From a virus, in IMG/VR virus record IMGVR_UViG_3300045988_001523: a stretch of 5,721 nucleotides of DNA; one strand, 5' to 3'. Positions 868-5,721 of this stretch are shown piece by piece. Each line of letters opens with the position of its first letter. The stretch's first letter is position 1. The position numbers were made by a program, and so were the translations under genes. Under the pieces are notes generated by a model, which searched no databases, was not told where the DNA came from, and saw nothing but the letters and a program-made list of their open reading frames with translations.

Positions 868-2553
868 TTAGATTGTATCGAGGCCCGGAATACTGTAGAT
901 CGGCATAGGACGTGTCCACGTCTGATCGTAGTACAGGTTTACTAAGAACTGATGGCTGTTCGAGCTCTGAACCGCAATTGTTCGGTCGATGTTCTCGGTA
1001 CCTTCCTGTATCCAGCTGCTGCTCAAGGTCGGAAGCTGTGTGTACTTGTCCGCATAGTGCCATGCGTCCAAGGTCTGAGCGTAGGTGCTCCGCATTTCGC
1101 CAGTGATCTGGTTCGTGCGGTACCTGTAGTCGGCCCACGCTTCCTGGTACCCAAAGACCTCTTCATCTTTGGCGTTCCCCTGTGCATAGATCTCTTGATT
1201 GAGTACTGCCTGTTCTCCCAGATTTGCAAGCATCGGGTCATAGTAACTGAATCTCGTGCTTCTGGTCCACAGTCGGCTGAGGCCCTGCTGATAGCTGTGA
1301 TCTACTCGGATTGCTGCCAGTCCGATGACATAGCCGTGCTCGGTTGCGCTGTAGGTGCACATGTTCCGGCTCATCGTCGTCATACTGTATGCACCGGTGT
1401 TGCCCTGCGGGCTCGTGCTGTCCGTTGCACTGGTCTGCACCACCTGATTGACGTTGATAGGCATCCTGTAGCCGCCGATGTACTCACTCCGGTCAAGTCG
1501 TGCGTCCGGACTGGTCACACCCCATGCACCCTGCAAGATTTCTTTGTACCGGGTGCCGGTTCTGGCGTCACGCTCGAAGATGTGTTGTACTGCGATCGCC
1601 TGCCGGAGTTCGTTGATCGTTGCCGCCGTTACGCTGCTGAGGTCTGCACCCATGTATGCCTTTTGACTGTAATTTCCGTTGTCGTAGTCGGTCTGCCCTG
1701 CCGTTTTGCTTGCCCAGAAATAGTTGCCTGTACTGTTGAACGGGTACCCTTCCAGCATTTTCGCGTTTTCGGCATCGGTTACCATGCTTCCGTATTCCCA
1801 CGCTCCGGCCTTTGCTCCTGATACTGTTCCGTAGCTTTTTGCTTCTTTTGTCAGTGCGGTGTCGATGAATGCTCGCACCGGTGCGTTGCCTCCAAGCGGG
1901 ATCGTCACCGGATCAACTGCTTTTTGCGGCGACGGCAAACAGCTTGTGAAGTAATCTTTGTACTTGCATACTTTCAGCGGCATGCCGCCTTTTTCGGCGT
2001 CGCTCAGGCTCGTGCCCGTGTTGCTGCCTGCGGTCGTTGCGTCGCTTTTGCTCATGGTCACCGGCTGTTGCAAGTTTTCATCCCGGAACCACTCGTTCCA
2101 CACTTTGCAGTATGCCCGGAACGGCATTGAGTTCACGCTCAGGTTTGGTACTCCGGTCGGAATGCCGAAATAGTCTGCCAGTGTGCCAACATTCCAGCCG
2201 CCGCTCGGTGCAGTCGTCTGCGGCGTGGTGTATTCCGTTGCTTCTGCCCAAAACGTTTTGTCGTTCTGGCCCATGAGATTTTCAAAGTGCTCCCACAGCA
2301 GGCGTGCCGGTACGAAGAAGAAATAGTAGTCCATATACGCATTATCCATGACCGGATAAAGCGGCGTGGACATTCGCGCCAATGCGTTCACGTTCACTTT
2401 GAAGGTATCTGCCGGTAACACCTCATCAAGATAAATGGGGACCAAATCGCCCTCGTTGATGGTCGTCAAAAGACTGTAGTCTCGTTTGAATCTTGCTCGC
2501 CGGATTTCTGCGTGTGGCACCTGACTATAGTGCTGCTCACTGTTTCTGTTCAT
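868..2553 (-). CDS. VP1: Major capsid protein VP1 (Microviridae F-protein family)
   Basis: 561-aa ORF with ATG at 2553 and GAGGTG 7 nt upstream. The N-terminus (...SQVPHAEIRRARFKRDYSLLTTINEGDLVPIYLDEVLPADTF...MSTPLYPVMDNAYMDYYFFFVPARLLW) has the typical gokushovirus VP1 pattern. Size and position (after the scaffold gene, before VP2) fit. Confidence 0.95.
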   Translation of the reverse strand: MNRNSEQHYSQVPHAEIRRARFKRDYSLLTTINEGDLVPIYLDEVLPADTFKVNVNALARMSTPLYPVMDNAYMDYYFFFVPARLLWEHFENLMGQNDKTFWAEATEYTTPQTTAPSGGWNVGTLADYFGIPTGVPNLSVNSMPFRAYCKVWNEWFRDENLQQPVTMSKSDATTAGSNTGTSLSDAEKGGMPLKVCKYKDYFTSCLPSPQKAVDPVTIPLGGNAPVRAFIDTALTKEAKSYGTVSGAKAGAWEYGSMVTDAENAKMLEGYPFNSTGNYFWASKTAGQTDYDNGNYSQKAYMGADLSSVTAATINELRQAIAVQHIFERDARTGTRYKEILQGAWGVTSPDARLDRSEYIGGYRMPINVNQVVQTSATDSTSPQGNTGAYSMTTMSRNMCTYSATEHGYVIGLAAIRVDHSYQQGLSRLWTRSTRFSYYDPMLANLGEQAVLNQEIYAQGNAKDEEVFGYQEAWADYRYRTNQITGEMRSTYAQTLDAWHYADKYTQLPTLSSSWIQEGTENIDRTIAVQSSNSHQFLVNLYYDQTWTRPMPIYSIPGLDTI

Positions 2554-3052
2554 CTGCTTTCACCTCGTTTTTTGTCTTTTTGACGGTTGCGTTGCTCTGA
2601 TCCGGCTGTGTTGCAGCATCGTTTTTCGTCAAAATGCCCATTTTTTCAAGCCACTCGTTTTCGCCTGCGGTCGCTGCCCACTGCTCAAAGTTCATGCCGA
2701 ATTTCTGCCGGATTTCCAGCGGCAGCTGGTTGAACTTCTCTCGCTGCTCGTTCATCATGTTGAGGTATTCCGTGTACGTCTGCGGCAGTTTGCTGGTGTC
2801 GATGTAATATCCCGGTGTTGCCAGTGCGGTGTCGTCGCCTGCTGCGTATCGGCTCAAGATCGCCATCACGTCACACTGTTCTCTGTAGCTCTGGATTTTC
2901 TCGTAAGTGTTTACATCACCTACTTTTTCCAGATATGCTTCACCCCGTTCATCGTACCTTTCCCGGTATTCCGGCTCGAGTATGTTTCCTGGACAGCTCG
3001 GTTTGCTCTCCGGCTTTTCGTCTCCGTATGGCTTAAAGATTTTTGCCGGCAT
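2537..3052 (-). CDS. VP3: Internal scaffolding protein VP3 (Chlamydia-phage scaffold-like)
   Basis: The track ORF starts at TTG 3070. I prefer ATG 3052, which has AGGAGGAG (3067..3060) 7 nt upstream and gives 171 aa. It is an acidic/helical protein (...YEKIQSYREQCDVMAILSRYAAGDDTAL...QLPLEIRQKFGMNFEQW...) resembling gokushovirus VP3. Its 3' end overlaps the VP1 start by 17 nt. Confidence 0.8.
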   Translation of the reverse strand: MPAKIFKPYGDEKPESKPSCPGNILEPEYRERYDERGEAYLEKVGDVNTYEKIQSYREQCDVMAILSRYAAGDDTALATPGYYIDTSKLPQTYTEYLNMMNEQREKFNQLPLEIRQKFGMNFEQWAATAGENEWLEKMGILTKNDAATQPDQSNATVKKTKNEVKADEQKQ

Positions 3053-3284
3053 GTTTCTTCTCCTCCTCAAGGTTATAGACCAGCTGCGGCACGCACGGAT
3101 TGATTGCGCCGGTTTCGTTGTCGTAGGTACCCATCAGATAGATGCGCTTGTCGTCGCAGTCTGCCGGTTCGTTCTCCTGCATCAGCCACTTAAAAGTGCG
3201 CTGGGCCACCTTTTCGTTTACCACCATTAGGTTTGCAAAGGTTCCTGCCAGTTCGTCCTTGATAGAATACAGATTGAAAGTCAT
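3033..3284 (-). CDS. Small non-structural protein, VP5-like by size, position and N-terminal pattern
   Basis: 83-aa ORF with ATG at 3284 and AAGGAG upstream (agaaaggagaacaacaATG). Its N-terminus (MTFNLYSIKDELAGTFANLMVVNEKVAQRTFKWL) resembles the M..F.I.D.K...F..P......A.R.F pattern of small gokushovirus proteins encoded just upstream of VP3. It overlaps the VP3 start by 20 nt. Confidence 0.55.
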   Translation of the reverse strand: MTFNLYSIKDELAGTFANLMVVNEKVAQRTFKWLMQENEPADCDDKRIYLMGTYDNETGAINPCVPQLVYNLEEEKKHAGKNL

Positions 3285-3515: not shown

Positions 3516-3926
3516 TTACTCCACCCCCTTTCTGTATCGTTCGGTGCTGCGCACGTCTACGTGCACAAAGTTGGTATATCTGATAACGCCGCCAGCATCT
3601 CCTAATGCTTTACTTGCGTATTCAGCCACTTCTTTGCTGGTATGGCCTTTGACCTGTATGTCTGCTGCCATGCCTTTCATGTGATAGCTCAGCGGTCGGC
3701 CGCCGACTGCTTTGTTGTGTGCCGGTGTTCTGTATGCGCTGGTGATCGTCACCGGTTCGTTGAAGTGTACACGGATGATCTCCAGCAGCTTTACCAGTGC
3801 TTTTGCAATGATGATAGGTTCGCTGCCGTCTTTGCAGGCATATTCCCTGTACTTAAAGTGCGTAGATACGTTGTTTTTACCATCTTCGGTTCTGGTTGTC
3901 ACAATCATCTCTCTGGTTTCTGCCAT
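3516..3926 (-). CDS. Zn-dependent peptidoglycan peptidase, Peptidase_M15 (M15_3 / D-Ala-D-Ala carboxypeptidase-like) family; candidate endolysin
   Basis: The track ORF starts at GTG 3935. I prefer ATG 3926, which has GAGGTG 6 nt upstream and gives 136 aa. Motifs include ITSAYRTPAHNKAVGGRPLSYHMKGMAADI, which carries the H-x6-D metal ligands (SYHMKGMAAD), and FVHVDVR, which carries the third His. These match the SxYR...N..vGG...S.H..G.A.D ... H.D signature of M15 peptidases. I see no N-terminal signal peptide or TM segment. Confidence 0.85.
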   Translation of the reverse strand: MAETREMIVTTRTEDGKNNVSTHFKYREYACKDGSEPIIIAKALVKLLEIIRVHFNEPVTITSAYRTPAHNKAVGGRPLSYHMKGMAADIQVKGHTSKEVAEYASKALGDAGGVIRYTNFVHVDVRSTERYRKGVE

Positions 3927-3945
3927 TTGTATCACCTCTGGTTGT

Positions 3946-3972
3946 ATTGTAGCATAAAAAAAAAAACGTCAA
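3946..3972 (-). promoter_or_regulatory. Candidate sigma70-type promoter for the peptidase/structural (late) gene block
   Basis: The minus strand reads TTGACG (3972..3967), a 15-nt spacer (T11 + ATGC), then TACAAT (3951..3946). The TG of TGCTACAAT sits in extended -10 position. The element lies ~20 nt upstream of the peptidase ATG. The spacer is short, so this is tentative. Confidence 0.4.
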
Positions 3973-3987
3973 GCTGTTCGCTTAACG
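3956..3987 (-). terminator. Rho-independent terminator downstream of VP4
   Basis: The minus-strand transcript reads CGUUAAGC-GAACA-GCUUGACG. This is an 8-bp stem including one U-G wobble, with a 5-nt loop (3987..3967). A run of 11 U follows immediately (3966..3956). Confidence 0.7.
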
Positions 3988-3999
3988 TTTTGGTGGGTA

Positions 4000-4094: not shown

Positions 4095-5192
4095 TTAAAT
4101 TTCTTCCCGAATCAGTTTCTTCATCCTGTCTTGCATTGCTTTGTCTTTTGCGGTATAGTATTCTTGCATGTTTAAGCCGGTCTGTTGTAGCTGTGCAAAG
4201 AGTGCATCATTTGCGATTCTTCGACGTTCTCGCTTGATGGCTCTCAGCTCTTCAGATTCGGCTTTTACTATTGTGTCTTCTATACCTGTTGTTTCTGCTT
4301 CGCTTAGTGGTGCGCTGTTGCTGTGTTCCAGATCAAACAGTTTATCAAAGTATCTTGGAGGTTTACACGTTTTTCCGTTTGCTAGTTGGATGCTATCTTT
4401 TGCATAGATTTCATCTTTGTGCTCAAAATAGTACCGCTGTCCGATTCCTTTACTCATCATGCAGCGTTCTGGTGTGATTCCTAGTTCTTGGTAATACTCT
4501 TGTCCCGCTTTGCCGTACACCTTTTTCGTGGTGTATCGTGCGGTGTATGCCATGTTTTTCCACTCTGCTGCTGCTATGACCACATGTCCCATGCCCCAGA
4601 GCTTTGTTATCCAATCTACATTGTAGTAAGTATATCCTTTCTCTTTTTTGTATGTTTTGAGTTCGTCTTGCTGTATTGGTAGGCTATACACGATCGCATG
4701 ATAGTGTGGTCTATGTGTTTTGCTGCCGTATTCGCCAGCTTGGAAATACATCAGTGCTTCCTGATTCCTCTTGTGGTATTCTAGCCAGCGTCTCAGCCTT
4801 TTCCAGAACTTCTGCATGTCCTCGTCGCACAGGCTCAGATTCTCGGTTATGACTTCTCCTGTTAGTTTGTCGTATGTGTATCGGTATGGAACGTGCTCGT
4901 TGTCGTAGGTGAGAGTTAAAAACCATGCGTTCTTGTGGTATGGCAGCTCCATTTCCATTCTGTTTGCCCAGCTGGAAGAGTTTTGCAGTTTGCACCCTGT
5001 GCACTGTCCGCATGGTATGAGCTGTGCTTCGTCTAATCTGAGCATGTTTAACAGTTCGCTTTCTTGGCTTACGATCTCTATACCGTCGATGATGATTCCA
5101 TTTTTCCGTGTATGTTCATCACTCCATAGGTATTTTTTCAGACTGGTTATCTGTCCGTTTTTGAACCGGACTAAAGGTTTTGTGCACCCCAT
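4095..5192 (-). CDS. VP4: Replication initiation protein VP4 (HUH rolling-circle endonuclease, phiX174 gpA-like)
   Basis: Motifs present are FLTLTY (RCR motif 1), RPHYHAIVY (HUH motif) and AYTARYTTKK (paired catalytic Tyr, Y-x3-Y). There is also the PCGQCTGCK cysteine cluster usual near the N-terminus of gokushovirus VP4. The track starts the ORF at TTG 5264. I prefer ATG 5192 (MGCTKPLVRF..., 365 aa), with GGAAGGAG ending 12 nt upstream. ATG 5228 is an alternative, but it lies inside the 16-bp hairpin. Confidence 0.93.
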   Translation of the reverse strand: MGCTKPLVRFKNGQITSLKKYLWSDEHTRKNGIIIDGIEIVSQESELLNMLRLDEAQLIPCGQCTGCKLQNSSSWANRMEMELPYHKNAWFLTLTYDNEHVPYRYTYDKLTGEVITENLSLCDEDMQKFWKRLRRWLEYHKRNQEALMYFQAGEYGSKTHRPHYHAIVYSLPIQQDELKTYKKEKGYTYYNVDWITKLWGMGHVVIAAAEWKNMAYTARYTTKKVYGKAGQEYYQELGITPERCMMSKGIGQRYYFEHKDEIYAKDSIQLANGKTCKPPRYFDKLFDLEHSNSAPLSEAETTGIEDTIVKAESEELRAIKRERRRIANDALFAQLQQTGLNMQEYYTAKDKAMQDRMKKLIREEI

Positions 5193-5216
5193 GGATGTTT
5201 CATTCTCCTTCCCTGC

Positions 5217-5258
5217 CAACTGGCCCATATACCCTTCTTGATGTATATGGGCCAGTTG
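5217..5258. repeat. Perfect 16-bp inverted repeat (42-nt stem-loop) between the RHH gene and the VP4 start
   Basis: CAACTGGCCCATATAC (5217..5232) and GTATATGGGCCAGTTG (5243..5258) are exact reverse complements, separated by a 10-nt loop (5233..5242). No U/T run follows on either strand. The VP4 Shine-Dalgarno begins a few nt after the stem on the minus strand. Confidence 0.9.
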
Positions 5259-5295
5259 ACACAAAATCGCTTGACCGTACTGTCAATTAGATGGA

Positions 5296-5490
5296 TTATT
5301 GTTTCTTCTGCCATTCATTTGTGAATGTGTACCCCGTCATCTTGTGGCAGTACGATACAATTGCTTCCCGGATGATGTCACTTTGGTTCATGTTCCATCC
5401 TCTGGTGCTCATTTCGTGTTGGAGTGCTTCAAGTGCCTTCTTTTCACGGTCGGTCAAATTGATGTTGATTCTTTTGGTCACGTTTTTCAT
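5296..5490 (-). CDS. Ribbon-helix-helix (Arc/MetJ/CopG-like) DNA-binding protein, putative transcriptional regulator
   Basis: 64-aa ORF with ATG at 5490 and AGGAGG 7 nt upstream. KRININL has the alternating pattern of an RHH beta-strand. TDREKKALEALQHEMS fits helix A, G-W-N-M-N-Q-S a turn, and DIIREAIVSY helix B. It is the first gene after a strong promoter and lies directly upstream of VP4. The fold assignment is by pattern only. Confidence 0.65.
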   Translation of the reverse strand: MKNVTKRININLTDREKKALEALQHEMSTRGWNMNQSDIIREAIVSYCHKMTGYTFTNEWQKKQ

Positions 5491-5508
5491 GTTTTGTCCT
5501 CCTACTTT

Positions 5509-5564
5509 AAGTGTGTGGTTGGTACACTCATAATATACACCTTCTTTCTACACTTTTCAAGTGT
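5509..5564 (-). promoter_or_regulatory. Array of GTGT-core repeats across the promoter (candidate operator)
   Basis: The minus strand has (A/G)GTGTA at 5554..5549, 5541..5536 and 5528..5523, an exact 13-nt period (plus strand TACAC at 5549, 5536, 5523). Inverted copies ACACTT sit at 5564..5559 and 5514..5509. The first pair forms the palindrome ACACTT-GAA-AAGTGT, centred on the -35 hexamer. Confidence 0.5.
5532..5560 (-). promoter_or_regulatory. Sigma70-type promoter for the RHH-VP4 (early) block
   Basis: The minus strand reads TTGAAA (5560..5555), a 17-nt spacer, then TATATT (5537..5532). It lies in the 73-nt gap between the VP2 stop and the RHH ATG. Confidence 0.65.
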
Positions 5565-5721
5565 TATTTTTTGCCTTTCTTTGTGCTGAAATCTCCGTGG
5601 ACTTTTCCACTGACGTTCGTGTTTTTGCCTGTTTCGGTGCTGCTGCTTCTTTCGGTTCCGGTTCCGGTGCTGCTCCCGCGGTCTGTCCGTGCTATATCTT
5701 CTACGGTTCTTGCACTGCTTG
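5564..5721 (-). CDS. VP2: VP2 C-terminal end (same gene as 1..851; 5667..5721 duplicates 1..55)
   Basis: The VP2 frame continues through the repeat as ...RGSSTGTGTERSSSTETGKNTNVSGKVHGDFSTKKGKK, with stop TAA at 5566..5564. On the 5,666-nt circle this gives a single 317-codon gene. Confidence 0.8.
   Translation of the reverse strand, partial: SSARTVEDIARTDRGSSTGTGTERSSSTETGKNTNVSGKVHGDFSTKKGKK
5667..5721. repeat. Terminal direct repeat, copy B (circular-genome assembly overlap)
   Basis: Exact 55-nt duplicate of 1..55. This implies a circular unit of 5,666 nt. Confidence 0.95.

Follow-up and report, generated by a model that had tools for sequence, protein, structure and literature searches.

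Results

The window, by which we mean the whole 5,721-nt stretch of viral DNA analysed here (IMG/VR record IMGVR_UViG_3300045988_001523), is a complete circular gokushovirus genome. Its nucleotides 1-55 are identical to 5667-5721 and represent an assembly overlap, so the true length is 5666 nt. Every gene is encoded on the minus strand, and the plus strand is antisense to all of them. VP1 (868-2553), the scaffold protein (2537-3070), ORF5 (3033-3284), an M15 peptidase (3516-3935), VP4 (4095-5192) and a small RHH-like ORF of 64 aa that is specific to this clade (5296-5490) follow one another along the window, and VP2 spans the window ends at the circular junction. VP4 is an HUH rolling-circle Rep of 365 aa when read from ATG 5192 and was identified via Pfam (PF23343, 1.9e-15) and PHROGs (PHROG 942, replication initiation protein, 3.6e-95). 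An alignment with the VP4 proteins of Chp2 and phiMH2K shows no variation at its HUH histidines (H163 and H165) or at its two tyrosines (Y216 and Y220). The M15 peptidase gene matches Pfam PF08291 (1e-24) and PHROG 894, endolysin (1e-36); no such gene is annotated in the classical gokushoviruses Chp2, phiMH2K and SpV4.

Between the stop codon of the RHH-like ORF and the Shine-Dalgarno sequence of VP4 lies a perfect inverted repeat, at the position given by the first-pass annotation. The RHH-like ORF is located upstream of the repeat and forms part of its context, outside the candidate origin discussed below. The same holds for the best sigma-70-like promoter of the RHH-VP4 unit (TTGAAA-17-TATATT, 5532-5560, minus strand). 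A canonical intrinsic terminator (3963-3991, minus strand), consisting of a 12-bp stem followed by a T run, is found about 100 nt past the VP4 stop and probably ends the RHH-VP4 transcript. The Shine-Dalgarno sequence GGAAGGAGA (5205-5213, minus strand) directly follows the repeat on its 3' side in the mRNA and is unpaired there. Within 5190-5213 (minus strand), its distance to the VP4 start codon is unusually long (about 12-13 nt), with the spacer GAAACATCC being kept across the clade, and an out-of-frame ATG at 5203, 1-2 nt past the Shine-Dalgarno sequence, opens a 10-codon ORF. Long spacer and short ORF may serve VP4 translation as a leader or as a means of coupling.

On the plus strand, the 5' arm CAACTGGCCCATATAC (5217-5232) is complementary in 16 of 16 positions to the 3' arm GTATATGGGCCAGTTG (5243-5258). 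The arms enclose a 10-nt loop (5233-5242) reading CCTTCTTGAT on the plus strand and ATCAAGAAGG on the coding strand, with the core CTTGAT at 5237-5242. If one mismatch is allowed, the repeat extends to 19 nt (5214-5232 and 5243-5261). The 3' arm runs into a clade-invariant flank box at 5257-5264, which reads TGACACAA on the plus and TTGTGTCA on the coding strand, contains TGACAC and is a candidate Rep-binding or recognition element. The whole element on the plus strand thus reads CAACTGGCCCATATAC ccttCTTGAT GTATATGGGCCAGTTG ACAC. Scanning of both strands showed TGACAC in this flank box to be single-copy in the window, and a repeat search around the hairpin returned neither iterons nor any repeated flank motif, leaving the single TGACAC box.

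The likelihood of such a structure arising by chance was assessed using shuffled sequences. Sixteen pairs were not reached in any of 300 dinucleotide-preserving shuffles, whose maximum was 14, obtained once, and the hairpin is the sole perfect stem of at least 8 pairs with a loop of up to 40 nt in the window. Calculated folding energies of the single-stranded DNA were -17.2 kcal/mol for the plus and -19.1 kcal/mol for the minus strand (z of about -8), with none of 200 shuffles being as stable, and the RNA fold is very stable as well. The structural claims of the first-pass annotation, namely a perfect palindrome beyond chance expectation, the strongest structural element of the genome and a stable hairpin in single-stranded DNA, are thus confirmed. 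Its remark that the hairpin is not an intrinsic terminator also holds, as neither strand carries a T/U run after the stem and our terminator scan passed the hairpin over. In Rfam, no family was found at the gathering threshold; the sole match, mir-299, reached 25 bits compared with a threshold of 67 and is a chance match.

To follow the element through related genomes, IMG/VR was searched with VP4, yielding 41 relatives with 50-74% identity, 40 of which had upstream sequence available. A hairpin of 12-20 bp was present 18-32 nt upstream of the VP4 start in 39 of these 40. Contig L023 carries a G-rich tract (G runs with few other bases) upstream of VP4 at the contig end (1-73) and lacks the hairpin, probably owing to an assembly problem or a truncated contig. 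The stem sequences differ among relatives (for example GGGCCCCAATAAC, CCTAGCCCCTATAAC, GGGGGGAATAGAC and CTGGGGGGAAATGT), while the loop is constant, its coding-strand sequence being (A)TCAAGA(R)G. In an alignment of 31 sequences, 14 of the 18 stem pairs show compensatory changes with both sides altered, almost without G-U intermediates, and 94.6% of stem cells are paired, a value matched by none of 500 shuffles; pairing drops to 30-50% when partner columns are slid against each other. The search for compensatory changes proposed with the first-pass annotation showed that the stem is conserved and the arm sequences are not. Invariant columns among the 31 relatives are restricted to the loop (TCAAGA) and the 5' flank (TTGTGTCA, both on the coding strand), and the gene order VP2, RHH, hairpin, VP4 is kept within the clade.

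Searching IMG/VR for the exact 16-mer gave 13 matches, all of them in large unrelated contigs and thus attributable to chance. A scan with a combined flank and loop pattern likewise returned mostly chance hits among the matches listed; when these were checked with a covariance model, only microvirus contigs were confirmed and one locus was added. A prophage search using VP4 patterns, carried out as one scan of 185,579 genomes, returned no relative of the window VP4.

An HMM detected the RHH-like gene adjoining the hairpin throughout the clade (45 of 45 members) and in none of 67 further genomes that carry the hairpin. Its product has no match in Pfam or PHROGs, and in a PDB profile search ParD and NikR, both RHH proteins, came up with E-values of only about 1. 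A single-sequence AlphaFold model (pLDDT 77) shows a beta-alpha-alpha arrangement whose best fold matches are the RHH proteins ParD, AtaR and ParB-pCXC100, with E-values that are not significant. The sequence follows the pattern KRININLT...SDIIREAI. The promoter region of the gene (5495-5565) is highly conserved, with TTGACA-17-TATAAT in relatives and TTGAAA-17-TATATT here, and GGTGTA repeats conserved in the clade cover its -10 element and +1 position. These repeats are a candidate autoregulatory RHH operator.

The survey was then widened to 67 IMG/VR genomes with 33-44% VP4 identity and 74 Chp2-like environmental genomes, and a module hairpin was found in nearly all of them. The shared module consists of a stem arm, a loop ending in CTTG(A/T)T, the second stem arm and TGACAC, and no other hairpin is as strong in Chp2, phiMH2K, SpV4 and more than 170 metagenomic gokushoviruses. 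In Chp2 it reads CTAGCGTATAACAG tctaCTTGAT CTGTTATACGCTAG with 14 of 14 pairs and CTTGAT on the coding strand; the strongest hairpins of MT135272, PP511839 and phiMH2K share this loop design on the coding strand, and that of SpV4 has the loop ACTTGTT, also on the coding strand. Among 93 distinct hairpins anchored on CTTG, this tetranucleotide is invariant and is followed by A in 86 and by T in 90 of 93 cases; with few exceptions, the 3' arm leads into TGACAC irrespective of orientation. A covariance model built from the window clade alone detects the element in distant genomes. Across both orientations of the module (see below), 89.9% of cells are paired in the model-fitted alignment compared with about 35% for slid partner columns. 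Phages of unrelated hosts (Chlamydia, Bdellovibrio, Spiroplasma and gut bacteria) share the motif unchanged, which fits recognition by a conserved phage Rep rather than by host enzymes.

Several other palindromes were encountered during the survey. Genome L292 contains two copies of the hairpin module (666-704 and 5186-5224). One clade with an inverted module carries, in addition to the CTTGAT hairpin and at a distance of 20-65 nt from it, a GC-rich palindrome (CGCGCGTGCGCACG...; L239 3874-3916, L245 4416-4458, L249 3268-3310, L240 2131-2170), which could be a further cis element such as a complementary-strand origin. Long palindromes in the IMG/VR microvirus contigs L225 (5725-5797) and L280 (62 bp) consist of Nextera/Illumina adapter sequence (CTGTCTCTTATACACATCT...) and are assembly artefacts in public contigs.

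The module occurs in two orientations. We refer to genomes with CTTGAT on the coding strand as F class and to those with the inverted module, having CTTGAT on the non-coding strand, as R class. The coding-strand arrangement is found in about half of the genomes and the inverted one in the window clade and several others, with 87 F and 88 R genomes among the 175 classified. The covariance model agrees with this assignment, matching the VP4 strand in R genomes and the opposite strand in F genomes. In the R class, the site lies 8 nt upstream of VP4, 20-30 nt upstream in the window clade and the mink virus KT264785, or just downstream of VP4 in a large gut clade; the environmental pair L262/L266 belongs to the R class as well.

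Base composition at 4-fold degenerate sites changes with orientation. In the first survey, the coding strand of F genomes (n = 27) had means of 0.50 T and 0.12 A and that of R genomes (n = 85) means of 0.435 A and 0.116 T, so that the composition at synonymous sites is mirror-imaged between the classes. The virion strand of phiX174, which equals its coding strand, shows T 0.577, C 0.208, G 0.130 and A 0.086, and the same rank order is observed for the plus strand of the window (T 0.387, C 0.294, G 0.233, A 0.086). Of all 175 genomes, 158 have the strand carrying CTTG as the T-richer one at 4-fold sites (Mann-Whitney p = 2e-28), and GC skew shifts along with the orientation class. A bias towards T at third codon positions is a signature of ssDNA phages and has been attributed to C-to-T deamination of single-stranded DNA (PMC3278643).

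Exceptions to the composition rule exist, with the T-A skew being negative in 16 of 87 F genomes. phiMH2K is an exception with a T-A skew of -0.31, and L304, an F-class genome with a CTTGAT hairpin at 2089-2112 (8-bp stem), has an A-rich coding strand and a skew of -0.69. In case of L304, the mismatch may reflect a recent re-inversion. The pair L262/L266 shows skews of -0.70 and -0.75 while its nearest VP1 relatives are F class with skews of +0.28 to +0.79; it is an independent inverted lineage, as found by nearest-neighbour comparison only. In the VP1 tree, the inverted and coding-strand groups from the gut meet near one node, so a single ancient switch is possible for them, and only two orientation contrasts are securely independent. 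Mismatches were also used as an indicator of which strand folds; on the CTTG strand, G.T mismatches outnumbered A.C mismatches (17 vs 11), but not significantly (p = 0.34).

Discussion

We interpret the hairpin as the viral-strand, or rolling-circle, origin of the window gokushovirus and assign this reading a probability of roughly 0.65. A Rep nick site within the loop fits the freely covarying stem, the invariant asymmetric loop and the match to a mapped nick site, and further the conserved adjacent box, the position next to rep and the constancy of the motif across unrelated hosts. In the GenBank record of phiX174, the viral-strand origin is annotated (rep_origin) at 4306, within CAACTTG|ATATTAATAACAC. 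The first-pass annotation had listed an origin among its suggestions, and this suggestion is supported, more strongly than could be seen at that stage, by the covarying stem, the invariant loop and the match of the CTTGAT loop plus TGACAC to an origin of phiX174 type. Two of its details have to be revised. It had seen a faint likeness to phiX174 in the coding-strand arm (CAACTGG...), but the true resemblance lies in the loop on the other strand, where CTTGAT is followed by TGACAC; and it had taken the coding strand to be the relevant one, but the evidence points to the antisense strand.

A mechanism can be outlined by analogy with phiX174. In the supercoiled replicative form, the inverted repeat would extrude or melt and present the loop 5'-CCTTCTTGAT-3' in single-stranded form on the plus strand of the window. 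VP4, a two-tyrosine HUH endonuclease homologous to phiX174 protein A and the presumed trans-acting nickase for the hairpin, would recognise the loop together with the adjacent TGACAC box, whose role at the origin is suggested by the same analogy. It would then cleave the plus (antisense) strand at the predicted site between G5240 and A5241 and remain attached to the 5' end, and the 3'-OH would meanwhile be elongated by a polymerase of the host. Once a round is complete, VP4 would cut and reseal the regenerated hairpin, and a circle of the nicked strand would be released. The sequences themselves show the hairpin and its covariation, the constant loop and flank, the homology of the module in the subfamily, its two orientations and the mirrored synonymous composition; cleavage by VP4, the exact nick position and the packaged strand we infer by analogy.

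Since the module is inverted relative to the genes in the window clade, the displaced strand would be antisense to all mRNAs. The tracking of the T-rich strand by module orientation fits this indirectly, apart from the exceptions given above, and by analogy with phiX174 the antisense strand would also be the packaged one in the window clade. To our knowledge, all characterised members of the Microviridae have been described as positive-sense, which sets a low prior for an antisense virion strand. We advance only tentatively, and with a little less than even confidence, the broader proposal that the window clade, several large gut gokushovirus clades and at least one independent environmental lineage, all with an inverted origin, displace and encapsidate the strand complementary to their mRNAs.

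Other functions were weighed against an origin for the viral strand. The hairpin might instead act on the packaged single strand as an origin for the complementary strand (an sso or an entry site for primosome, primase or RNA polymerase), at which host enzymes prime conversion to the double-stranded replicative form, comparable to the ssi hairpin of phiX174 or oric of G4. Its stability as ssDNA and its orientation, which tracks the T-rich and presumably packaged strand as a strand-specific ssDNA signal should, are both in line with this, and the link between orientation and composition is explained equally well. Conserved Rep-adjacent hairpins of other microvirus clades have tentatively been read in this way (PMC9865509). 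However, signals for host enzymes should differ between hosts, and the core CTTG(A/T)T does not vary among phages infecting Chlamydia, Spiroplasma, Bdellovibrio and gut bacteria and coincides with the site nicked by the phiX174 Rep. Known sso and oric elements are also much larger than a single hairpin of 9-20 bp. We thus consider a complementary-strand origin unlikely as the sole function, and a dual role in the synthesis of both strands is possible.

An RNA structure governing the translation, processing (by RNase III, for instance) or stability of the VP4 mRNA was considered as well, since the hairpin falls within the probable RHH-VP4 transcript (promoter 5560-5532, terminator 3991-3963), folds very stably as RNA and presents in its mRNA loop a Shine-Dalgarno-like AAGAAGG followed by the in-frame ATG 5228. 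The first-pass annotation had pointed to this ATG as an alternative VP4 start; it is indeed in frame with VP4, but the arm contains no corresponding start in relatives. The Shine-Dalgarno sequence and start codon of VP4 itself remain outside the stem, and G-U intermediates are almost absent from it. Further, the element reads CUUGAU in the mRNAs of some clades and AUCAAG in those of others, and it is situated upstream, far upstream or downstream of VP4 depending on the clade. This variation in orientation and position excludes a shared RNA function, so the translational gate proposed earlier is not supported and control at the mRNA level is very unlikely, with a clade-specific side effect on the mRNA being possible. 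A protein operator was another earlier suggestion. Here a dimer such as the RHH-like protein would bind the double-stranded repeat symmetrically and regulate VP4, in line with the perfect palindrome next to a small RHH-like gene with a conserved DNA-reading strand (KRININLT). The same hairpin is carried by 67 genomes without the gene, its loop is asymmetric and invariant, and its arms change freely yet stay complementary, which is a pattern of base pairing and not of protein-contacted half-sites. With the GGTGTA repeats over the -10 and +1 positions of the clade's conserved promoter being the better operator candidate, we regard an operator at the hairpin as highly improbable. Least weight of all is given to intrinsic termination or attenuation ahead of VP4, in the interval that follows the RHH gene: a strong GC-containing stem does separate the two genes, but the missing T/U run, the canonical terminator after VP4 (3991-3963) and the constancy of the loop despite inversion between clades, which termination leaves unexplained, make this reading barely credible.

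Two additional candidates were rejected. An N-terminal extension of VP4 from ATG 5228 or TTG 5264 would make the hairpin coding, but neither these starts nor the frame are conserved, and we conclude that the hairpin does not encode protein. In dif sites, XerC and XerD bind conserved arms on either side of a 6-bp centre, and integrated copies would be expected in bacterial genomes; a dif/XerCD site or a folded attP like that of CTX phage was dismissed as the arm sequences are not conserved among relatives and the single scan of 185,579 genomes revealed no prophage related to the window VP4.

Hairpin origins whose loop holds the nick site are already well known, and CTTG|AT is the core of the phiX174 origin. 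Of particular interest here are the subfamily-wide origin module and its two polarities. In the openly searchable literature, we found no description of a gokushovirus origin hairpin, though an older one in the original Chp2 and phiMH2K papers is possible, and none of antisense packaging in the Microviridae. Among the ssDNA phages of gut and environmental viromes, gokushoviruses predominate, and the element provides a concrete origin candidate for them. As a simple rule finds the module in nearly every genome, it will be useful for annotation, for defining genome start points and for building replicons or phagemids. If the origin defines the packaged strand, many microviruses would be negative-sense, and the clades with an inverted origin would be the first negative-sense Microviridae, in which the flip of the origin would also have reversed the mutational skew of the whole genome. 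This would change the description of the family, the reading of ssDNA virome libraries and strand-specific reads, and the modelling of mutational bias and codon usage in ssDNA phages.

Among known systems, the hairpins of reekeekee- and roodoodoo-microviruses, described in one paper on other microvirus clades (PMC9865509), share an intergenic, Rep-adjacent position, a conserved loop and compensatory stem changes with the element. Their function was left open with a leaning towards negative-strand priming, and no link to the phiX174 nick motif or to strand polarity was reported (PMC9865509). The phiX174 origin itself has in common with the window element the CTTG|AT core with a downstream ...ACAC on the same strand, a cognate Rep that is a homologous HUH enzyme with two tyrosines, and the location of the motif on the T-rich strand. 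It differs in layout, as the 30-bp phiX174 origin lies inside gene A on the coding strand and has no hairpin, whereas the window has its core on the antisense strand, within the loop of an intergenic hairpin with 16 perfect pairs. For these reasons we regard the window element as a variant and not as a strict phiX174-type origin.

Rolling-circle plasmids of the pC194/pUB110 type have the nick consensus CTTG|ATA in their dso and thus share both this consensus and a Rep of the HUH superfamily. They differ in being plasmid replicons and in using a Rep of the Rep_1 family, unlike microvirus VP4. The copG-repB cassette of plasmid pMV158, with an RHH repressor gene directly upstream of rep, resembles the gene arrangement seen here: a small RHH gene precedes an HUH rep under one promoter with repeated candidate operator boxes. 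In pMV158, however, the origin is located upstream of the cassette and not between the genes, so the likeness concerns the context and not the hairpin.

Origins of CRESS-DNA viruses such as geminiviruses and circoviruses likewise combine a variable, covarying stem with an invariant nick-site loop next to rep, and all three features of such HUH hairpin-loop origins are present in the window element. Their loop nonanucleotide is NANTATTAC, compared with YYTCTTGAT here (CCTTCTTGAT in the window), their Rep has one tyrosine and a fused helicase, and in place of their iterons a single TGACAC box is seen in the window. Which strand enters the virion depends in these viruses on how the origin is oriented, and an antisense or ambisense arrangement of genes is common among them.
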